Source of the DNA: Thelocarpon superellum
Lineage: Eukaryota
Reading direction: 5' to 3'
Assembly: GCA_026025795.1 (NCBI GenBank)
Contig: JAPEUG010000136.1
Span: 1 to 38,458, forward strand
DNA length: 38,458 bases
Each line of letters starts with the position of its first letter. Positions within the stretch are counted from its first letter, which is position 1. Below, piece by piece: positions 984 through 37,453 of this stretch. The position numbers were made by a program, and so were the translations under genes. The notes beneath the pieces are model-generated. The model ran no database searches. It worked only from the letters and a program-made list of their open reading frames with translations, and was not told the origin of the DNA.

Positions 984-3099
984 TCGGTCTATGCGGTAGG
1001 TTATCCCTTCGCTCACCCCGAGACACGGCCGCACCATGCTCCTCATCCGTTCCTCTTCCCCAGTCCCTGACAGACCGCCCCCGCATCTCACGATCCATCT
1101 CCCGACCGCTCTCCTGACGCATCGCCCGCCCATCGCTCGCCCGGTCGTGATACTGGTTGTGAGACAGGGCAGAAGGCGCAGAGGCTGGAGCCAGGGCGAC
1201 GCTTTGACGCGGCCAGGGTCGTGACGTCGGCCCACTAGCGTCCGAGGGGCAGGAGAGCGCGGCGAGAAAGGCGGGGACGACGCATGATGGGATCGGAGAA
1301 GATGCACTGAGACATGGAGTGACGGTGGTGAGCCCGCGGCGACTGGTGAGCGTTGCAGTCGCGAGGTGGCATGATCATATTCATGCACCTGACATCTTTG
1401 CTGCACTACGACCAGGGTGAGACGGTCGATCACCCGCTACGCGACCAAGCCACCACAACCATCTCCCGAAGCCACGCTGCAAGCGACGGCCCGTCCGCGG
1501 CGATCAGGCCGTCTAGAAGAGGGCCAAGTGTCTGACCAGGGCAACTCTAATGCGGGATTGCCTCGCTCCACCTGGCATAATCCTCCCGGGCACCCCGTTG
1601 GCCGTGCGGTGCGAGGATATCGAATGTGGCGCCACGGCAAAGCGAATAGCAGACGTTATAGTAGCCTAACTAGAACCCTACTTTAATCGTCCTTGCCCTA
1701 CTCACACGTGCCCGCCTACGTCGGAACCTCTGGATAGGTCCGCACCATAGAGCCTATCAAGATGAGCTGATACCTATCCCACCTCATCAACAGGAAGAAG
1801 TGATGCTCACGGGAGGCGTCGGACGTAGATTGTGAGGTCCTGTCCTACCAGTGTTGTTGTAAGGCTCGATATCACTCGCCAGACGCAGAGAGCTGGGTAG
1901 AGCCACGGACCAGGTGTCACCCGCCCACTGCACCGTGCGGCGAGTCGAGAAGCGAGAGTCTGAAGCGAGCGGTCACATCTGCTGAGACTCGACGCCGCGC
2001 TCCACGACACTACGACAAGTGCGACGGTCTGCGACAGCCGCAGTCTAGAAGTTAACGAAGCTTCGACGTCTCGATACGCGTCAGCAGCAGTTGCTACCCG
2101 CGGACTCGGGGATGAACCGGGAACTGCGTCGTCAAATTCATGTACGCCTCTTTGACCTCGCCGGCCGAGGCTAGATCCGGTGAAAGCGGTCCGCGCCCGT
2201 CCACGCCGCCACAGTCGATCCGGTGGGTCTTTGCTGGAGATCGACGGATCGACGGCGTGGGTTCGTCGTGCAATGGCGGACAGAGGGTACAATTGCATAA
2301 TCACGGCGCCCACATCGATCCATGACCTGTACTTTGTAATGGGTAGACTCGTCGCCGAGACTCATCGTCGACACAGCCCTGCAAGGCCGGAGTCGGAGCC
2401 TCAGACGCGATATAGACATGGCACGAAGGTGGTCGGAACAGGAGGGGGAGAAGCCTGGAAGGTTCTTTTGGAAACTCGACCCACAACTTGGGCCTCCTTG
2501 CCGCACCTGGTGCTTTCGACCAAGAGTCTCGAGAGACTTCATCACCTGAGCGGCACCACCTGGATTTAGCTCGTCTGCCGGCCCACAATCTCGCCCCAGC
2601 AATTCACGACCTTGGCTTGAGGCGAAAGAAGTCGATCAGCTTCACAGGTCATGAATCTGGCGTAAGGTTGGCCGATGGATGGGCATGGCAATAGGACGCC
2701 CGCCAATGTCTCCGAACCTGTTCATCATGCCCGCGTCTCACCCACCCGCCCTTGATCGAGAACGTGCACGGAGCCACATACTTGGCCGTCGTCCCAGGTG
2801 CGACACGGAGGCTACGCCGCTGGATTGGGCCCGTCAACAATCCCCGTCTGTCACGCTACACTCGACCCTCTATGGATTACGCATCCCAGCCGGAAATGTA
2901 TGCAGCATGCACAAAGCTGCATACCGCTTGTAAATGCCACGCTCGGCCACGCTGGCACGCTGGCATGGTGGCGCTTCGGCCCCCTGGCGCCGCAGCGGCT
3001 GCGCTCATAGCGTGGCTTGAATAGAAGTCATGGGCTTTGGGTGTTTGATCAAGAGTGGCCCTCCTCCCTTCGAGCCGTGCCGCACGAAAGGAGACGACG

Positions 3100-4454
3100 T
3101 CAATACTCGACGGCGCGCTTGATGGCGTCATACACTCCTGAACAGGCTGTGAGCATGATGCTGTCTCGGCCGGCGGTGAACGGGGGCTGGGGAACTCACG
3201 GGCGACATCAGGGATGTTGAAGCGCTCGTAGACCAAGCCCATGTGCGTACTCCAGCCCGCGACCCGCTGGACGGGGGCCTCCAATCGCAGAAAGGCCTGA
3301 TCTTGGATGGTGGCGGCGACTTCCGCCCCTACCCCGGCATTGACCATGCTCTCGTGCACGATGACGGCGCGCCCCGTCTTCCGCACGCTCTCCAGCACGG
3401 TGGGTCGGTCCCACGGGTAGAGGGTGCGGAGGTCAATCAACTCCACCGAGACGCCGAGGTCGCGCTCGACCGCTGCGGCCGCGGCAGAGCAGGTGTACAT
3501 GGGGTGGCCGTATGACAGCAGCGTAACGTCCTGCCCTTGTTGCACAACCTCCGCCTTCGAGAGGGGCAACGTGTAAAAGGCCGTGGGCACATGTTCGACC
3601 GCCGCGCGATAGAGCGCCTTGGGCTCGAGGAAGAGGACGGGGTCGTTGCTCTGGATGGCGGCTAACAAGAGCCCTTTGGCCTGCACGGGAGAGCGCGGCA
3701 TGACGACCACCAAGCCGGGGATGTGGGTGAAGAGCGATTCCGGCGACTGCGAGTGGTATCTAACCCCGCCGAGCGTCAGCCATCGTCCGCGACGTGTCTC
3801 GTGCATGCACGTGGGCATGAACAGAGCATACAGCGCGCCATGTCCGACCCCTCCACACGGCATTCGCACCACCAGACCTCCAATGTCATGGCCCGTCGTG
3901 CCGGCGCGATACCGAAACTTGGCGGCCTCGTTGACCAGCTGGTCAAAGGCCGGGTAGACGTAGTCGGCAAATTGAATCTCGGCCACGGGGCGCATGCCTT
4001 CGGCGGCACATCCGATGGCAAAGCCCGCGATGCCCTGTTCCGACAGGGGCGTGTTGAAGACTCGCTCCGATCCGAATTCCGTCGCCAGATTCATCGAGCA
4101 CCGAAACACCCCGCCAAAGGCGACATCTTCCCCGAAGAGCAAGACGCGCTCGTCGGCTGCCAGCGCCGTGGCCAGGGCATCGTTGATGGCCTGGAAGAGG
4201 TTGAGACGCTTCGTAGAAGAGGATCGAGCGGGCTCGCATAGCTCGGGATTGGCCAGGCAGGTCTGCGGGGCATGGCTCAGGATCGGAGTCGAAGCAAAAT
4301 CCGTGGGCACGTTTAGCCGGGCATTCGACGGCTGCCCCGAATAGGCCCGGCACGGACGAGTCTTTGTCGCCGCCGACAGCAGAGCCCCCGTCCGGGCCCA
4401 TGAGTATGTCGGTGATCGCGCGATCGAACGTACCACGAACGGAGACACGGTCAT
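3100..4454 (-). CDS. BCKDHB: 2-oxoisovalerate (branched-chain alpha-keto acid) dehydrogenase E1 beta subunit, mitochondrial (about 406 aa)
   Basis: Exons 4454-3832, 3759-3200, 3137-3100. Introns 3760-3831 (GTATGC..TAG) and 3138-3199 (GTGAGT..CAG). Motifs LFGEDVAFGGVFRC, RVFNTPLSEQGI, AEIQFADY, GHGALYHSQSPE, LEAPVQRVAGW; ends RVYDAIKRAVEY*. Arg/Ser-rich N-terminal presequence. Confidence 0.95.
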
Positions 4455-5862
4455 TCTACCTACATTTCATCCGCGCGTGGAGCGGGTGAAACCTGGCCGG
4501 ACCGAGAGGAAGAGCTTGCTGGGCCCTATCCAAATTTTACTGCGGGGTAGGAAACACAGCGCGGCGCATGCGAGCGACATCACGAGTTAAGTCCGTGCTG
4601 GTGTCCCATATATCAAACGGCAGGATACATCTCAAGTCGAGCTGAATCAGGTCTTTACAGAGTAGACTACATTAACACTCTCAAGTATGAACTAGTAGTT
4701 CTAGGCGTTGAATGTAATCGATGATGTTTATCCAGCTTTCGATCATTACTTGAGCAAGTGAAAGGCGAGCGAGAGCGGGTGGACCATCGCAGACGATTAG
4801 TGCCTGCGTAGATTCATCCTCTTGAAGCGGACGTCGGAAAACTGCTTGCCCATTTTACCAGAGATTGGCGGTTGTGTAGATGATTCTTTGGAACCTGTCC
4901 TTAAGATTGTCCTTCTGGGGGGGGCTTCCGCATCGCCGTCGGATCTGCGCTTGTGGTACCCGGCCTATGTTAGTGGTACGAAGTATTTTTTGCGGTGTGT
5001 CGCGTGGAGCGCCCCTGGCGCCGGTGCTTCAGGCACTTTACGCACGCTATGTTACTTTGTCCTTCATGCATGGTGGGACGGTGCCTCTAACCCCACGCCC
5101 AGTGGCGATCGCTTGCATTACTCGTCCTCATGCGTACTTGTACGAGGCGTACATCACCAGTCGGAGCAAGACCGAGTCACTGCTGCCCAGGCTGCAAGCG
5201 GCTTGACTGGGCCGATGCTGATCCGGGTAAACGGTGCGTTGGCCTCTAAGACAGTCATTGACGAAGAAATTTCGCAGGTCCCAGTACCCTGTAGAGCCTC
5301 AATAATATTGGCATGTATTGGAACAGGCGCCAGTCTCCGGAGCCCAAGTATATGTTAATGTTAGGGCCAAGACACGCATCCGCCGCTTCGTAGGACCTAG
5401 CGTGTTGCCTCCCACAGCCGGCGCAATGGGTGTAGACGGCGCCCGCTCGTGCATTGTCGTAAATTACTTCACACCTTCGGGTGTGCACGGGCAGGATCAT
5501 CTGTGCGTTCACTTGCGAAGGACCTCTCGCGACCTCATTCGCCCAGTCGGTCTACGGTTCGCCTGCCCCCCACCGCTGCCCCACGAGGCATTTCTGCTCT
5601 TCAACATGCCTTTACTTATCGTCCTGCGATCCGCACCATCCCTGCGAGGACGATTCTCGAGCTCGCAGCAGTGAATGAGCGCTATCCGGGCGGCGCAATG
5701 GTTAGGAGAATCCCCACATGGCGCGGACCGATGGACCTAGCTCGCGTTTTCCGCCTCAGAATGCGAAACGGGCATATAACGACACGGCACCGCGTCGCAC
5801 TTGATTGATCAGATCGCGTTCCATCTACCCTTCGATCCTCACTGGCCGTCTTTTCCGAGCTC

Positions 5863-7208
5863 ATGTTCATCTCGGGCGCGTGGGTGGTTCTGGTCGTCTC
5901 CTGGACCTTGGCCCTAGCCTCTCTGCTTCAGTTCGTGAAGCCCATCTCAGCGCGATATGATGGGACGCAGCAAGTTCAGAAGCTCGCCGCGGAGGACGGA
6001 AGGGTCTCCACTCCTCTTGACGAGGATGGCGTGATGGACGCAAGTATGGAGTGGTGTAGGTTCTCTTCTCTGCCCGGGAGCGTCACATTTGACAAGTAGA
6101 ATAGCTGCGGTCGACGATCAGACACTTCACCAGTTATCCCGGCGAGAAGAAACGACCAACTCCTCTGCCCTATCCACGGCCTCCACGGCTTCCTCTAACG
6201 ATTCCGACGTACATCCGCCGCTCACTCACAGGGTGGCGGAAGGGTCGGGTTCGACGGGTGAATTTTGCACCCAACCGTTCTTCCTCCGTAGCTCCCAGAT
6301 GTACGTCCTGGAGTTTGAGGAGGGGACCCGTCCCCGTCATGATGGTATGTAGGGCTGAATGGGCCCAGCCGTGCCCCCGCACGAGAGCGAGACTGATGTG
6401 TCGCAGCGATGCTTCTCCTCGTCCGACGAGGGCGGACGGTACATTTCATGTCCCCAACCGAGACCAGTCAGCATTTTCAGGTTAGACGGTCGGGTCATTA
6501 CGAACTCTCAGGTCGAGGGTTTTCGGTAATCATTTGGGCCATTTGGAATCTCTGTGAGCGCCCCAGGCCGCGCAAAAGGGTCGCGCAGCATTGCAGCGCG
6601 GCCATCGGTCGTCGACGATGACCTGGATCGGGCGATTGATAGGCAATAGGGCCATTCCCGCAGCATCACCGCAACATTGCTGTAGGCGGTAGTGGGATTC
6701 TTCCCCGAGACGTGGATTCGTCCATGTCCAGCCTAACGTCACGAGACATGACGCTGTCGCGGCGACAGGAGTCGGGCTCATCCGTGCGGCACTTGATCGT
6801 GCAAGGCATGGCGCGGCACCATGGTACCTTCTCTCAGATCTTCTGGCTTCAGGCCAACTCGCCCTACGCCATCCAGTTCTCGGCTGCAGGTGGTACGGTT
6901 GCCTCTTCCTTCTGAAGCTTGCCCCTCATACCGGTACACCATGATACATGGTCTGACGCGACGATAGTGAGATGGGCGGTTGAAATGATGCGTGTGGGCT
7001 CCCGCCATTTCAGCTGGCAGCAGTGGTCGGGGCCACGAGGATCTCACGAATGGTACTTCACCACGGATGTGGATGGCCTCTATGAACTTGTGGTAAGTTG
7101 ATCGGCGACCAAGTCATTGCTACACAAGTCTCCCGGCTCATGTGGTGCGTTCAGTTTGAACATGTTTTGCGCCCTACAAGATGGAAGATCTTGTCGATCG
7201 AAGGCTAG
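5863..7208 (+). CDS. Orphan secreted protein (about 329 aa, 6 exons) with two diverged ~95-aa beta-rich internal repeats
   Basis: Model: 5863-6043, 6105-6344, 6407-6553, 6650-6892, 6968-7092, 7155-7208 (990 nt, in frame). Well-supported introns: 6345-6406 (GTATGT..ACTGAT..CAG), 6893-6967 (GTACGG..CTGAC..TAG), 7093-7154 (GTAAGT..CAG). Boundaries of introns 1 and 3 are less certain (alternative donor 6056, alternative acceptor 6685). Hydrophobic N-terminal signal peptide; the two halves align with each other. Confidence 0.65.
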
Positions 7209-8125
7209 CCCTCACCTTTGCCACTGCTAAAACGGGGCCTGATGAGGTGAAAACAGACGATGTTTTCTCTGGACTTTAGGCGAGTACTCGTGCGCCTCGC
7301 CCCGTGTACGCATGTCCGTAGGTAATCACACCCACTAAGAAACATGGGAGGCGAAGGGAATTGCAATGTGCGTCGAGTAGGCAGGAAGCATTCGTAATAA
7401 CTATCCCCCCCACTACGTGTACAGCACGTATAGCCATGCCCCTGCCTCCCAGCGCGTACAAAATCTGCGTCGTGATGCCCCAGGCTCCTGGTACAGATAG
7501 AGCAGCCAGAAAACTAGTTACTTCCCGGCTTCCCGTATGTACTGAACGCACATCTTGAGACCCCAAGCTTCTTGTACCTCCTTGAGGTGCATCGGGAGAC
7601 TCTTGACCTCCACACCTGCTGACATGCATCATGATGACCCCGGCGTCCTGGATGCACCAAGCTCACATCACAATACCCCCGCCATCCTGTAGCTGCCGAT
7701 TATGTATCTTACTGTCCCCGCCTTCCGGTACCTTCTCGATGCATATCAAAACGCTCCCGCCTTTCTGTTCCTACAGAGAGTGCTTCATGACACGCGCCGC
7801 CTCACATATGCCTTTAGTTCCAGGTCGGGTAGTCACGAGTCCTGATAGAGGAGGGGCCGCTCCCTTTATCGGCAGCGGAGGCGATATCATGACGCCAGAA
7901 TAGAGTTCGGTGGGCAGCGAAAGGCATTGGCTAGCTCCCCACGATAGTGAGCGGAAGGTGCAGGGAGCTCGTCCCAGTGTAGTAGGAGCACGCCGTACGA
8001 GTGCCGTACCATAGGTACCGATCCATTGGAAAGCTCTCTCCATCCACAACAATCAATCATCCTCGCGCGATTGAGAGTTGATAATCCTCAATCGAAGTGC
8101 CCCGCTCTCAGCGGCGGCGACAGAA

Positions 8126-10732
8126 ATGTCTCTGCCAGGCTACAGCAGCTCCCGCACCATCATCCTGACCGTCGCCAAGCTGCTCATGCTGACGGTCAGC
8201 CATGTCCCCCTCCTCCACGCCGCCCCGCTCGAGGCCTGGTTCCGCGTCGCCGCAGAGAACGAGGGAGGAGAGCCAACGAGCGAACCAACGCTGTGGATCT
8301 ACCTTACCACCGCCGTCGTCCTCGTGCTCCTGGGTGGAGCGTTTGCCGGCTTGACCATCGCGTTCGTCTCATTCTTCCAGCTCGTCGTGACGACACTAAC
8401 GCGAGATGTAGCTTGATGGGCCAGGACGACGTCAACCTCCAAGTTATCCAAGCCTCAGGCGAGGAGCGGGAGAAGCGCCATGCCGGCCGCGTCCTTGGCC
8501 TGCTGAAGAAGGGCAAGCACTGGGTGCTGGTGACGCTACTCTTGGGCAATGTCATCACGAACGAAACCCTCCCCATCGTCCTGGATCGTTCGCTGGGAGG
8601 CGGATGGCCCGCCGTGCTGGGCAGTACGGCGCTCATCGTCATCTTTGGCGAGATCATCCCGCAGTCCATCTGCGTCCGCTACGGACTTCCCATCGGCGCC
8701 TGGATGTCGCCACTGGTCCTGATGCTCATGTACATCCTCGGCCCCGTCGCCTGGCCCACGGCCAAGCTCCTCGACTGGCTCCTCGGCGAGGAACACGGCA
8801 ACGTCTACAAGAAGGCGGGTCTGAAGACGCTCGTCGATCTCCACAAGACGCTCGGCACCAGTCCGCACGAGCGCCTCAACCAGGACGAGGTCACCATCAT
8901 CAGCGCCGTCTTGGACCTGAAGGACAAATCGGTCGGCAGTATCATGACGCCCATCGAAGACGTCTTCACTATCCCGAGTGACACGGTCTTGGACGAGAAG
9001 ACCATGGACACCATCTTATCCGCCGGCTATTCGCGTATCCCCATCTTCTCGCCCGAGCTCGAGACGAACTTTGTGGGCATGCTACTGGTCAAGATCCTCA
9101 TCACTTACGATCCCGAGGATTGCAAGCGCGTCAGCGATTTCGCCTTGGCCACCCTCCCAGAGACGCGTCCCGAGACGAGCTGCCTCGATATTGTCAACTT
9201 CTTCCAGGAAGGGAAGTCGCACATGGTCTTGGTCTCGAACTTCCCAGGAGAGGATCATGGAGCCCTTGGGGTAGTCACGCTGGAGGATGTGATTGAGGAG
9301 CTCATTGGCGAGTACGTGACCGGAATGATCTTGCCCCGCTCGCTTGGACTGACGCTTGCATAGGGAGATCATCGACGAATCCGACGTTTTCGTGGACGTT
9401 CACAAGGCGATCCGACGCATTACGCCGGCCCCCAAGGCGCGTCTCCCAAAGAATCAGGCGGCGAACGCGGGAGAGCCGGTGGACGACGTGGAGTCGGAAG
9501 ACCTGATTGAAGTGGGAGCCGACGAGCTGCCGTCGGCCCTCCAATCCCGCCACGCGTCGCTGGATGGATCGGCGGATGCCCGTCCAAAGGCTAAACCCTC
9601 CATGTCAGACTATGGCGCGAGTCCAAGAAACTTGGGACTTCAAAGGCCGTCGACTCTGCTTGGATCGAGCAACCATGCCACGGCCGGGATGAAGGTCGGC
9701 GCCCCGGACATGTTCGACCAGCTCAAACATCTGGGACCGTCCAACTTGGCGAGCCGTCCGCGCACGACGCGGTATAACACGGTGAAGATCAAGCCGGGTG
9801 GGGGAGGCGGCGGAATCGAAGAGACCGGGAAGAATGTGGTCGGAAAGATTGTCGAGGAACCCTCCTCGCCCAACGCGGTGTCTCCCGCGCCTCAAGGCGG
9901 CATTGGCACTGGGCTCGTGACCTCGGCCGGCAAGGATGCCTCGGATGGGGTGTTTGCCCTCCAAGCGGGATACGGTAGCATTGCTAGCCCGCCAGCCTCG
10001 TCCCGCGAGAACGAATCTCCGTCGTCGCTGGATACGACGCCAACGGCGACGCAGCCACGTCGATCCAAAGCCGAACCTGGCACCCCGGTTACGGTGCGGA
10101 AGGTGTTGGATTTCGGCAAGCCTTCCACGCAGCAATCGTCGACGCGACACGTCTCTACGCCATATCCTACCACGCGGCATGTCTCCACGCCGTATCCCAC
10201 CGCACGTTCTACCTCCACGCACCATGCCGATTCGACGGGTTCGCCCTATCTACAGCCGAGTGCCAAGCAAGGATCGATGTCGGTCGCGCTCACAGGGACG
10301 ACGGCTCGGTCGGGCAGCATCACGGAGAACGTGGTCCATGCCGGCGGCGTGCGCAAGGTGATTCTCGAGACGACGAGTGGGAGCTCGGACGAAGCCGACG
10401 AGCACGATGGCGTTCCCGCGGGCGAACCCTCGTCGCGCAACGTCTCGACTTCCAACGTCAACACCCCGGCCCCTCGCAATCCTTCACCCACCGCGGCAGG
10501 CTCCGACGAGGCGGTTGGCTCGCCAGCGGCTACTCCTATTCCACGCCCGGGCACAAGCATCGGCGCGAATCGGCGACGCCGCCGCCGTCGCAAGCACAGG
10601 GGTGGTAGCCGCGACGATGGCGATGGCGATGGCGGCAAGCCGACGCAGAATGGAGACGACACGGACGAGACTGGAAACAGAGGCGCAGAAGATGGCGAGG
10701 AGACTCCATTGCTTGATCGTCGGGCGCATTAG
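8126..10732 (+). CDS. MAM3: CNNM/Mam3-family metal homeostasis membrane protein (DUF21 + CBS pair), about 834 aa
   Basis: Exons 8126-8361, 8412-9311, 9364-10732. Introns GTTCGT..CTAAC..TAG and GTACGT..CTGAC..TAG. Motifs [84 protein letters not shown]. Confidence 0.92.
10142..10201 (+). repeat. 30-bp coding tandem duplication ([10 protein letters not shown] x2)
   Basis: ACGCGACACGTCTCTACGCCATATCCTACC followed by ACGCGGCATGTCTCCACGCCGTATCCCACC. Confidence 0.9.
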
Positions 10733-18666: not shown

Positions 18667-20048
18667 CTAGCGCAACAAATCACTGAGATGGAACCCTCTC
18701 AATGGCATTTTCTCCCGCCGCTGACTCTCCCTGTCTTTTCGCCTTTTGCCCTTGCCCTTGCCTGTACTCGAGCCCAAACTCGCACCCGCACCCGTAACTT
18801 TTGCGCTGCTGTTACCATTCCCTCCTTGCGCGCCGTCATCCGTCATCATGGTGGATCCTCCGGCGACGCTCGTGCCTCCGCTGCTTCTCCGCTGCGGCTT
18901 CCCTTTCCTGTCGCGGTCTCGGTCTCGGTCCCGTGGCGTGATCGAGCGGGCCTTCTCCCTCTCCTTTCCCCTCTCGCGATCACTGTATTCCACCATTCTT
19001 CGTCGCGAGGAATGAATGGCCGCGGCGTTGGGAGAGATGAACTCGCCATCAACGCTCGTTTGGTCCGTGTTGTCGATATCGGCCTCCGTGACGCCGCGGC
19101 GCCAGGCCTCGATACGATTGACGTCCGCGCCCATATCCAGGTTGTCGTTCGCGGAGGCGTCCTGTCGCGCTTTGATCTTCTTGATGATCTTGTATCCGCC
19201 CAGTGCCACCACTACTACCCCCACGCCTAGACCCGCTGCGATCATGAATTGCGGACTGGCGAGCAGGGCGAATACCGCGGGGAAGCTGCCCTTCATGGCC
19301 ATGAGCGCGCCCGGTGCCAGTTTGGCCGCCACGTTGCTGATTTCGGCGAGGGTGAGCGCCACGGCTGCTAGGGCTTCCGGGTCACGCTGAAGGGCGGCAA
19401 TTGTGGCGGTGACGGAGTGTTGCACGCAGTGGGCTTCCATCAAAAGGCCGTCCACTTTGGACATGAGACCTTTCAGTTCCGCTTCGCGGGGGCTTTGGGG
19501 TGGCAGAGGAGGTGGGATTTCTCCGTACGCCAGGTCCATGTCAATGTGGGCGTCGGGAGCGAGGGAGGTGCTTCGGAGCGGCACGGGCCGACGCTGGATT
19601 AGCTGGCCTTCAGGAGTGGTCTGGCTGCGGTGAAGTCGAGGTGAGGCGGGGTGCGGTGCGCTTGGCGTCATGCCGTCGTCAAGATCCATGGGAGAGTGTG
19701 TAAGGCTCCGTTCGCTCCGCGACGGACTGTGCCGTCGTGGCTTCGACGGTTTGCCGTGTTTAGGTCGGCCTGACTTTCGGGCGTGGCCGCCTCTTGATGC
19801 TTCGTCCTCGGCCGCCATCATCTTCCGGCCGTCTTTGGCTCGTGCCTTCAAATGTCGCTCGGCCACCACCTCGGCCTTTCGTTCTTTGTAGGCAGCTTTG
19901 GCATCTTTCAAGACGGAGAAGACCGTTTTGCTCTGGTCGACGTCTGAGCACACGGTCGTCAGGTTCAAGGTGTTGCACCTACCGAGCTGATGACTTTGCC
20001 AGACCGATCCACCACGGCGATCGTCTGCCCGATGAGTGCCGGATTCAT
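18667..20048 (-). CDS. Uncharacterised fungal protein with one hydrophobic segment and a basic low-complexity tail, about 443 aa
   Basis: Exon 1 20048-19983 (MNPALIGQTIAVVDRSGKVISS), intron 19933-19982 (GTAGGT..CAG), exon 2 19932-18667. Ordered core DMDLAYGEIPPPL...LLMEAHCVQHSVTATIAALQRDPEALAAVALTLAEISN...FPAVFALLASPQFMIAAGLGVGVVVVALGGYKIIKKI. Confidence 0.8.
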
Positions 20049-21223
20049 GGTGGCGCCGGTCAAAGGTGACGGAGAGGAGACGGGTGTCTTCCTCGCTCTG
20101 ATCAATTGCCTTAGAGTCTGGTGAAATTATTCATCAAACATGGTAGATTGACAGCACGAGGATCGCACGCGGAAGGGTTGCTGAAATCAGGCGGATGCTG
20201 AACCGGCCAGCGGGTATCGTATACGCGGAGTGCGAGCAGACGCGGGCAGGAGCAGTAAATCTGGTGAGGCGGTGGAGCGGACGAGTCCTCGGTATTTGTA
20301 TTCGGGTCGGGCATTGATCGAGATGAAGTGGCTGCAGGGTGCAGTGTACCGGTCCCGATCAGGGCTCGCTGTGTCGTGTGCTGATCTGGCTGGGAACGGT
20401 GTGTTGGTCGAGAAACACAATCGATCCACAGGGACCAGACCCGACCCGACAGCCCCAACGACTTGTGACAGGGTGCCGGGGTGAAGGGGTGATAGGACCC
20501 TTCGACCCCCATCCGAGGGCAAATCGAGGGTGGTGGCGCGCGCCAACCAGGTTGGCTCCATCCGAGGAAGTCTGACGATCCTTGCGAGAGTTTACCGGCA
20601 AGCGACCATGGCCAAGCCCCACGGTGGCCGCGTCGCTGGCCGGGCCCAGCGCTCGTTACGAGACGAGTCACCTGAGGGAATAAATGCACGACTACCTACG
20701 GCCTACGGTAATAGGTGATGTGCAGCAAGTACCGGTGTGTGGGCGCAGGCCAGTGGCGGCGAACAGCGTGCCTGACGCGCAATGGGGCGAAGGCGAAGGA
20801 GGATGGTGCGCGAGATTGCCGCCCAAAGGGTCCCCGTAGCGTAACCTTGCCTTCAGCACGACCGAGCGCAGTGGCGTCTGGAACAGCCGGTCTGCTCCGT
20901 AGACCGGCACCATCCGTCTCCTTCAGCTTCCATGGTCATGCGTGGAAGGTGGTCGCTGGTGAGGCCATGTGGGAGAGAGACAGTGCTCGAACCCGCGTTT
21001 AATCGATGAGACAAGGTGACCAGATAGTCTGCTGTCTCAAACCTAACCAGACTCATGTCGAGCCGCGGCATGCATACCTGCCGACCTCGTAGACGCTCAT
21101 CGGCGTATCTCCGCGACTCGTGCCTCTAGATGCGAGAAAGGGCCGTCGGATTTACTGCGACAGCCGAGCTTGACCAGAACCGTCTCCATTCAAAATCACT
21201 AGGCTAGAGTGACACTCTACAAG

Positions 21224-24974: not shown

Positions 24975-27709
24975 CTACCCCAGCACCGCGAGCCGGTCCT
25001 GAGCCCGATGCAGGCGTTCCTTCTCTTTCTTCAGCTGGACACGTCGGGCCTCACGGTGAGGGTCCTCGGCCATGAGATAGGCACAGTGCTCTTGGGCTAG
25101 AAGACGACGTCAGCTGAGGATTGCTGCCGACGAGGCGGAAACGGTAGGGTTTGGCTCACCGTCCGCGCGTTCAAGCCCAAGGCCCTCGACGAGCGAGCGC
25201 ACCAGCAGCTTCCGGCACTTCAAGAAGAGGTTGCCCAGGACCCGGCGGTGGATGTTGTCGACGAAGCGCCACAAGGCGATCTCGTGATATCCACGCACGT
25301 GAGCGACGATGTCGACCTCCTGCCAGAACTCGTCCTTGCCCAGCCGCTTCAGATCGAATTTGGCCACCTTGGCCTCGCGTTTGCTTCCTTCTGTGACATT
25401 GTCCCCCTCATCTTCGTCCAGGGCCTCGTTGATGCGGAGCTCTAGCCGCATCTTTTGGAATCGCTGCTCCGCGTGCAACTTCCACTTTTCCTTGCCGTCT
25501 TGGTCCAACGTGGTGATGTATCGCATCTCCAGGTCAAATATGGCGTTGGCCTCATCGCGTTCGTCTTTTAGCCAACGTTCCAGGCAGCTCTGGATGAGCG
25601 ATACGAGCACCTCGAAGAGCTTGGTCGGCTTCCAGCTCCCCAAGGCATCCTCCAGACGAGCCATGACTTGCTGCCGGAGGAGCTCCGCCGACATGTCAAC
25701 AAAGTCCAACATGGGTCCTTTCCAGTGGGCCGCGCTCTGGCGACTCAATCGATCCACCGTGTGGGAGTCGATCAGTCCCGGCATCCCGGTCGTACGACCG
25801 CTGCAAAGCTCCTCCCGGATTCCAGTGAGAGTGAAGGTGGTCCCAACGACTGCGCGGAAGCGTGAGATAGGATTGGCACCCGCCTGCTTTGGACGCTTCT
25901 GTGGCGTTGACGTGGGGATAGGGGCTGGTCCCGAGCGCTTACGCTTGTTGGAGTCTGGCTCGCGCTTCACAGGAGTGGCTTCGTCCCCGCTGCTCACGAT
26001 CTGGAAGGATTCCACGCGATTATTCTTCCTCGACGGCGTGGGCGTCTCTGGGGCAGCTTGGATCGTACGTGGGCGTTGCCGAGGTCGCGGAAGGCCTGCA
26101 GCTGGGTCGGGATGGAGATCGGGGCGCGTCGCCATCAAGAGTTGACGGAAGGCAAGGGCGAGCTGGTTCCACTGCTTGTGGAAGGTATGGTAACCTGCAG
26201 CATCGTCAAGGTAGTGCTGCAGCTCGCTGCCCATCTTGTCTAGCTGCCCTTGGAGCTTGCGCGGAAGATCTTCCGACGGTGGGTCTGGCAGGGTCTGGAG
26301 CTCTTGCTCGATTTGCTCCACCTTTTTGCGAACCTGCTCGTTGATCAGGGGAATGCTAACGGCGGCGAAAGTCAGCGAGCAAGACCGGTAACGGAGACGT
26401 GGCGTCACACGAACCTCTTTTTGATTTGGCTCGTGAGCTTCTCCGAGAGTGCAAGCTGCAGCTTCTCCGTGCCAAAACGGTCGGCGTAGGGCAAGAACTC
26501 GGTGTTCCATGGCGCCTCGCGTCGAAAGAAGTCGGCTTCGGCGGTCCGGGCCTGCTCATGGCTGAGGGTCTGGTCACGAAGCCCTCGCTCGGGTTGGCGC
26601 GTCACGAAATAGCCATGGCCTTGCTTGAAGGACTTTCCGGCGAGCAGCTCGCCCCATTTCTTGTGCGAGAGCTTGCGGATGAGATCCGGCTTGGTCAAGA
26701 CTCCTGGAGCGGGATGAGACTGTGACGTTGTGGGAAGTCTCACCTCACATACCGATGCAGCGCTCGTCGGCCTGGACCTCCTTCACATAGCGTCCGGCCG
26801 TCGAGTTGTTGGCATCCTCGGTCATAGGCCTAGCCAACAGGACCAGAGAGTTGTCGTCCCGGATATAGGATTTGACAAGATTCTCCACGAGGCTCACCAC
26901 GTGGCCATGGTCATCCTACCCTCAATTTAACAGAGAACATCAATCACAGGCCCAGTCGACCCACATTATCCGCTTCCTGAATCACGCCGGGCAGGTCGGT
27001 AAAGGACAAATTTGGAAGGTTCGGGCCAGAGATCTACTTTCCATCAGTCATGAGTTCATCCCCCGCCATGTTCAGCGGACTTACATCTAGTCGGACGACA
27101 TTTGGAGAGAATTGCTCCCGGCTCGAGAGATGGTGCGTAAGTCCATCGTCATGTCGATATTTCATCGGGTTTTCATGAGGATTGAGGATGGCCTGCTGGG
27201 CCTGCGAGATTACCTTCTCGACCTCGTCTTTGCTGTGTATGGTTTCAAAGGCGACGTCCTCCGGCAGCTGTGGCACAAAGTTTCCAAATCGTCGGTCGGA
27301 CTTCTGACTCTCAAACAATGGGTCATACATGTACCGCATGTGCAGCGAGACTTTGCATGCCCACTGAGCACCTTCCGTGTTGTTTTCGGTGAGATTGATC
27401 TCGAGCGGACACTACCGCTCCATTAGCCTGCGTCATCGATCCTCGTCTGTCACCAGACAATCATACTCGGGTACAGGTTCCGACGTCCCGGGGCACTTTG
27501 ATCTCACTCATGGCCTCGATCAGGGAGCTCTTTCCCGTCGACTGGTCACCCACGACGACGATCTTTGGGAGCGATGGGATGAGATCTTCCACGCCTTGTC
27601 GTCTCAAGTCGTTGATCGCCTCGACGTACGGTTTGACGCCATGGGTCAGACGATCCAGACTGGCTGACCCGCCAGGCGGGGTGTCTTCCTGCGGGGTGTT
27701 GCTGGCCAT
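24975..27709 (-). CDS. Dynamin-superfamily (Mx-like) GTPase with middle domain and GED, about 802 aa
   Basis: Seven exons: 27709-27467, 27411-27085, 27033-26965, 26915-26753, 26703-26415, 26355-25160, 25096-24975 (2409 nt, in frame). G1 LPKIVVVGDQSTGKSS, G2 GTCTRCP, G3 DLPG, G4 VLTKPD; GED YHEIALWRFVDNI...LMAEDPHREARRVQLKKEKERLHRA. Confidence 0.9.
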
Positions 27710-37325: not shown

Positions 37326-37453
37326 GTACAAGCACGGGTAAGTACAAGCACGGGTAAGTACAAGCACGGGTAAGTACAAGCATGGGAAAGTCCGAGCACG
37401 GGAAAGTACAAGCACGGAAAAGTACGAGCATGGGAAAGTCCGAGCACGGGAGT
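37326..37453. repeat. Minisatellite, 8 x 16 bp (consensus GTACAAGCACGGGWAA)
   Basis: Three identical GTACAAGCACGGGTAA units followed by five variants (GTACAAGCATGGGAAA, GTCCGAGCACGGGAAA, GTACAAGCACGGAAAA, GTACGAGCATGGGAAA, GTCCGAGCACGGGAGT). Confidence 0.95.

Follow-up and report, generated by a model that had tools for sequence, protein, structure and literature searches.

Proteins of the chagasin type (I42 family, PF09394; chagasin, amoebiasin, Pseudomonas ICP and Cip1) are built on an immunoglobulin (Ig)-like domain of ~95–110 amino acids (aa). Two reports define the I42 inhibitors by three loops, NPTTG (L2), GxGG after two hydrophobic residues (L4) and RPW/F (L6) (PMC2607524; PMC5014320); in the same reports, a two-residue deletion in the NPTTG loop drastically weakens both chagasin (PMC2607524) and Cip1 (PMC5014320), and the bacterial forms are described as secreted (PMC5014320). 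A study of the lichen fungus Xanthoria parietina counts 205 of 608 secreted proteins as unassignable, with 33% up-regulated in thalli (10.1101/2024.08.16.608140), and secreted orphans of that broad kind are therefore common. Thelocarpon is placed among the semilichens of microbial crusts (PMC12783798). It causes no disease in humans, animals or crops, and the earlier suggestion of an effector or adhesin would thus apply to a lichen-type fungus rather than a pathogen. Here we describe a gene at positions 5863–7208 of the forward strand of Thelocarpon superellum contig JAPEUG010000136.1; the window is the entire contig, 38,458 bases of a 19.15-Mb genome in 797 contigs. The gene is probably real, and its product is probably an orphan secreted binding protein with two tandem Ig-like modules, possibly a repurposed chagasin fold. 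A secreted tandem Ig-like protein is of a kind already known; the chagasin-like fold is the best lead. Like the X. parietina secreted orphans (10.1101/2024.08.16.608140), the product lacks domain annotation and has a signal peptide (predicted here), but it is apparently unrelated to them in sequence, larger, almost cysteine-free and internally duplicated. The aphid bicycle genes (PMC9168663) are similar in principle only: they too encode secreted orphan proteins with internal duplications, and their exon structure persists after resemblance in sequence has faded, but they form a large family in an unrelated lineage, whereas this gene is single-copy.

The sequence-only reading had proposed a hidden, spliced six-exon gene of ~329 codons, and this model was recovered: the six exons join into a single 329-aa frame ending in TAG, across five GT-AG introns of 61, 62, 96, 75 and 62 nucleotides (nt) in phases 1, 1, 1, 1 and 0. 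A splice-aware search for the longest frame returned 329 aa on the forward strand versus 83 aa on the reverse, 329 aa being reached in 0/150 Markov-1 simulations of the region (maximum 263), and the codon score of the frame was 0.010 bits/codon versus −0.25 ± 0.05 for an intergenic null (0/3000 null draws). Branch-like sites lie 12, 10, 10, 11 and 14 nt before the acceptors of introns 1–5 (12 nt, for comparison, in one intron of the neighboring Mam3-like gene), a spacing that would also account for the passing over of closer AGs in introns 1 and 3. In-frame alternatives at the intron-1 donor and intron-3 acceptor give seven models longer than 300 aa that differ only in the linkers. Splicing and expression of the frame are predicted. 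That the locus is instead a gene in decay or without expression, or a frame assembled by chance, is quite improbable given the two null results, the absence of any stop or frameshift in 329 codons and an internal repeat that persists in the protein though its DNA similarity has gone. Several observations nonetheless favor decay or chance: codon bias is below that of 14 of 15 adjoining coding stretches and negative for exon 3 alone (−0.18), the branch sites of introns 3 and 5 are weak, and the locus is represented among 1.84 billion representative proteins by a 63-aa fragment call, with no spliced product. Two 48-aa segments from repeat 1 had no usable match in a protein atlas and low recognition scores there (1406 and 1501), which by the atlas's own account are not decisive on reality; with no orthologue, selection is not measurable, a further point against the reading proposed below.

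A TATA-like box (5775–5779, +; a putative promoter element) is followed by a pyrimidine-rich leader to the ATG. Exon 1 (5863–6043) is predicted to encode a signal-peptide-like segment and the start of acidic linker 1, and intron 1 (6044–6104) has an alternative in-frame donor at 6056. Exon 2 (6105–6344, 240 nt) encodes serine/threonine (S/T)-rich linker sequence with two N-glycosylation sequons (aa 79 and 92) and, from ~6224, the first half of repeat 1; intron 2 (6345–6406) lies within that repeat, and exon 3 (6407–6553) encodes its second half, including F-x5-G-x-Y-E-L. Intron 3 (6554–6649), with alternative in-frame acceptors at 6685, 6709 and 6745, marks the boundary of the two modules. Exon 4 (6650–6892, 243 nt), homologous to exon 2, encodes S/T-rich linker 2 and, from ~6784, the first half of repeat 2; intron 4 (6893–6967), within repeat 2, contains one in-frame stop, and exon 5 (6968–7092) encodes the Trp-rich middle of the repeat, again with F-x5-G-x-Y-E-L. 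Intron 5 (7093–7154), the phase-0 intron, has no counterpart in repeat 1, and exon 6 (7155–7208) supplies the end of repeat 2, with R-P-x-x-W in place of the RPW of I42 proteins, and the stop codon. All of these features are on the forward strand.

The protein is predicted to be secreted by way of a signal peptide and to lack a membrane anchor. Residues 1–25 form an uncharged hydrophobic run whose hydrophobicity of 2.5 falls within the 1.6–3.2 range of 104 p24 signal regions, in line with the secretion proposed earlier; cleavage could follow aa 19 or 30 (−3/−1 rule, by eye). Hydropathy revealed no second membrane segment (best hydrophobic window past aa 30, 0.95), and no GPI (glycosylphosphatidylinositol)-like tail was seen by eye. 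The sequons fall in acidic, S/T-rich linker 1, and the domains are basic and aromatic, with three Trp in one and six in the other, 11 His, and one Cys in the whole protein. The N-terminal run has no basic n-region, which, with its 25 uncharged residues, would suit a type II membrane protein anchored in the secretory pathway or at the cell surface, its N-terminal segment uncleaved and its domains serving as GOLD-like cargo or enzyme adaptors. The GOLD domain of p24 proteins is likewise a secretory-pathway beta-sandwich, with an F-x5-G-x-Y-x-x-x-F strand motif, and the F-x5-G-x-Y part is shared with the orphan (17.3 bits, 1/100 shuffles). This arrangement is highly improbable, since hydrophobicity and length fit p24 signal peptides (medians 2.3 and 25), the GOLD profile match spans just 18 columns at 2.2%, and secretory adaptors are usually conserved across fungi, whereas the orphan has no relative. 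Membership in GOLD/p24 (PF01105) was rejected on that match, the single Cys in place of a conserved cysteine pair, and the lack of a C-terminal membrane segment; the coiled coil of p24 proteins is also missing, and the genome's own p24 genes are located elsewhere.

The two halves of the protein had been aligned as an old intragenic duplication, and self-alignment bears this out. With modules defined solely by cutting the protein at introns (A, exons 2–3; B, exons 4–6), 21 of 101 aligned positions are identical with two single gaps, a score reached by 0, 4, 6, 8, 11 and 24 of 4000 shuffles in six settings; for two hand-set splits of the protein, 6 and 162 of 5000 shuffles reached the self-alignment score. 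Exon 2 versus exon 4 is the sole significant pair among 10 exon pairs (2/3000 shuffles), exon 3 versus exons 5 + 6 is not significant taken alone, and no similarity between the two modules remains at the DNA level. Judged from the protein sequence, the duplication is real but weak, and old. The intron-bounded alignment and the exon 2/exon 4 match together indicate that what was repeated is a linker with its domain, with a phase-1 intron on either side, as expected from in-frame duplication of an exon module. A shared phase-1 intron after the Y..[EQ]F motif had also been claimed: both repeats do have a phase-1 intron nearby, but it lies 10 codons past Y-x3-F in repeat 1 and 5 codons past it in repeat 2, and the positions coincide only if two compensating 5-residue gaps are allowed, so that these introns are near-homologous and not identical in position.

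The suggestion that each domain is a small beta-sandwich of PPC, GOLD or lectin-like type stood in its general part only. AlphaFold2 models of both halves of repeat 1 are all-beta, with a beta-hairpin from the exon-2 half and five strands from the exon-3 half. The PPC domain (PF04151) is also a small secreted beta-sandwich, often in tandem, and has the G-x-Y-x-L motif in common with the orphan; membership was rejected, however, because the repeat scored 0.36% while true two-sequence PPC queries scored 96–99% (20/20 trials), and a PPC search of the genome returned none. PKD, PA14 and CBM4/9 gave 0.47, 0.79 and 0.25%, figures without a positive control and, for CBM4/9, from a profile of five sequences. 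Two-sequence PPC queries matched GOLD at just 0.08–7.2% (rough figures), and the method is blind to a shared jelly-roll fold at such depth.

The best fold lead is one that the sequence-only reading did not name, the Ig-like fold of chagasin/I42, and the orphan domain may be built in this way. The two-repeat profile matched I42 at 67–82% probability (hhalign; pairwise E ~1e-5, 0/200 shuffles), with strand order and spacing, G-x-x-W, F-x5-G and R-P...W aligning over 60–74 columns. Repeat 2 aligns with G-x-x-W after strand 3, G-x-x-G ahead of the F-x5-G strand, and R-P-x-x-W. At the L2 site it is three residues shorter and keeps only G, at L4 it has G-P-R-G and at L6 R-P-x-x-W; repeat 1 has no glycine at L4, nothing similar at L6, and keeps none of the three loop motifs. 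The orphan thus has the NPTTG, GxGG and RPW loops missing or altered, and it differs further from chagasin/I42 proteins in its two tandem copies on S/T linkers and its five introns.

A number of results weigh against this fold assignment. The I42 family was picked after inspection of a fold list, and no row stands out in that list; E ~1e-5 holds for one pair and, scaled to ~25,000 Pfam families, becomes ~0.3–0.5, which is not significant; and a decoy pair of PPC sequences scored as high as 65.9%. When 10 new, independent I42 sequences were used, the probability was just 18%, with 2/75 decoys higher, and single repeats were weak (repeat 1, 1.8%; repeat 2, 9.8%). Foldseek with the exon-3 model found no match at E ≤ 0.001. 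Strand alternation on the Kyte-Doolittle scale (0.88/0.89) is below that of 215 of 218 beta-sandwich controls and near helical controls, and is intermediate on a second hydropathy scale. A home-built I42 profile of 26 sequences gave repeat 2 7.5 bits and repeat 1 0.3 bits, versus 21–85 bits for left-out true members; because of this gap the orphan is, by profile comparison, not a member of the chagasin/I42 family. Pfam found no family match to pieces of the protein, and a PF09394 search of the whole genome returned none. No description of a fungal chagasin-like protein appeared in the titles and abstract starts of a partially covered literature.

A distinctly unlikely possibility is that repeat 2, though diverged, still works as an inhibitor of the chagasin type and acts on papain-like proteases from algae, competitors or grazers. 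This reading would draw on the G-x-x-W, G-x-x-G and R-P-x-x-W retained at I42 sites, on the absence of an NPxTG-like motif from 13 of 36 I42 members fetched as well, and on putative papain inhibitors reported for the lichen secretome (10.1101/2024.08.16.608140). The replaced and shortened NPTTG loop speaks against it, in view of the effect of a smaller deletion there on chagasin and Cip1 described above, as does the lack of all three motifs in repeat 1. It is rather doubtful, too, that the protein is a glycan-binding adhesin or lectin, whose secreted, Trp-rich beta-sandwiches attach to polysaccharide in the wall of the algae or in the biofilm gel, the resemblance to chagasin then being no more than a common Ig-like arrangement. 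The nine Trp, 11 His and single Cys, the S/T-rich linkers, and a fold list filled by Ig-like modules of adhesins and carbohydrate enzymes (Rib, LigA, Big_2, PKD) are consistent with such a role, and another lichen fungus is reported to up-regulate lectin-like genes in its thalli (10.1101/2024.08.16.608140). The carbohydrate-associated profiles, however, all scored below 1% versus 67–82% for I42, and an adhesin would have to do without a second membrane segment or GPI-like tail.

The earlier conclusion that the gene belongs to no recognized family, and has no relative, held in every collection searched. In its own genome exons 1–5 each, and the whole 3.6-kilobase (kb) region, match only themselves, and a motif-pattern scan found 10 places, two in the gene itself and eight unrelated (control, 7); the gene is single-copy, with the limit that very distant paralogues could escape sequence and motif-pattern scans. 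Exon 2 had no relative at E ≤ 1 among 130 candidates. A search of the 1.84 billion proteins with exons 3–5 produced no true relative: its five matches at E ≤ 0.001 were the fragment call of this locus and four tandem-repeat proteins, which were dropped because their score only sums weak stretches. Among PDB sequences the best E was 0.027, to a designed repeat, and of the half-repeat profiles one gave a best E of 1.3 and the other no match; pattern matches were confirmed in 0/596 metagenome, 0/10 prokaryote-genome and 0/17 viral cases. As the protein collection includes spliced products from both this genome and T. impressellum, the gene seems to be unannotated here and would be absent, unannotated or strongly diverged in T. 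impressellum.

The gene lies between housekeeping genes, as had been proposed. To its left, head-to-head with it, is a 2-oxoacid dehydrogenase E1-beta gene (2877–4454, −; PF02779, PF02780), which we take to be of the branched-chain type, and to its right a CNNM/CBS (Mam3-like) gene (8126–10732, +). Among 80 fungal Mam3 loci, E1-beta is nearby in 14 (L018, L026, L040, L042, L043, L046–L049, L066, L072, L075, L078 and L080), arranged head-to-head in seven, upstream on the same strand in two and downstream in five. The seven head-to-head loci (four distinct) have gaps of 597–2545 nt and no spliced frame above 137 aa, compared with a spacer of ~3.7 kb and a spliced frame of 329–333 aa in the window, and 872,504 bases of fungal Mam3 loci hold no match to the orphan. 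As the seven syntenic spacers lack such a frame, the orphan appears to be a lineage-specific addition to an old spacer. Its flanks, 4500–5800 (~1.3 kb) and 7250–8100 (~0.9 kb), are unique non-coding DNA with no Rfam match, and on the reverse strand no spliced frame anywhere in the spacer is longer than 118 aa. A transposon origin was rejected: apart from pairs of 13–23 nt at chance level, the region lacks terminal repeats and target-site duplications, and it has no repeat copy in the genome and no Rfam match.

The other genes of the window (DUF747, WD40/M20, P450, asparaginase-type, dynamin-like, importin-beta and DEAD helicase) make up an ordinary fungal set. A second signal-peptide-like gene (1–800, −) begins at 800 and extends into a tandem array rich in Ala and Pro at the contig end (90–444; periods 24, 72 and 84 nt); its first exon has no Pfam match, and its start may resemble that of Egh16/GAS-like proteins. 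A gene at 18670–20130 (−) has no Pfam family, yet of 8000 candidates at least 1548 are relatives at E ≤ 1e-20, most of them named as hypothetical proteins and coming from filamentous ascomycetes, lichen-forming species included, and its open reading frame at 18670–19920 (−) has a T. impressellum relative 58% identical. At 25113–26555 (−) lies a dynamin-related gene fragment (Dynamin_M 26.5 bits, below the 28.5 cut-off), and at 37326–37451 a 16-nt unit is repeated in tandem (7.9 copies, 88% matches), outside the examined frames.

We propose, with a probability of roughly 45%, that this is a lineage-restricted, single-copy gene for a secreted protein whose two chagasin/I42-like Ig-like modules bind a protein target in the fungus–alga gel through their loop ends. 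The gene would have entered, or arisen in, the old spacer that separates the head-to-head E1-beta and Mam3-like genes, and one module, a linker plus a ~90-aa domain with phase-1 introns at both ends, would have been duplicated long ago. The product, exported by its signal peptide, would present two Ig-like beta-sandwiches on flexible, S/T-rich, probably glycosylated linkers and would most likely act as a two-armed binder in the extracellular gel shared by the fungus, green algae and other microbes. By analogy with chagasin, it might grip a protein target, either a surface protein or a secreted hydrolase, via loops at one end of each sandwich; as these loops are remodelled, the target would be something other than papain-type proteases.

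Among the candidate proteins through which such fungi might make contact with their algae, most cannot be assigned a fold. In the present gene the internal duplication provides a profile of two sequences, and through it a fold lead that can be tested at little cost as protease inhibition versus glycan binding. Secreted orphans are common in fungi and, without a chagasin link or a family behind the gene, the finding would be of moderate interest. A bolder version, which we consider unlikely, is that a chagasin-fold gene came from bacteria, gained introns and doubled its domain, and that its two-headed product now inhibits or binds proteases that algal partners, competitors or grazers have outside their cells. 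Were this version true, there would be a fungal branch of the I42 fold that is invisible to sequence searches, and the protein would offer a concrete candidate means by which fungi with only loose lichenisation keep their algae in check.
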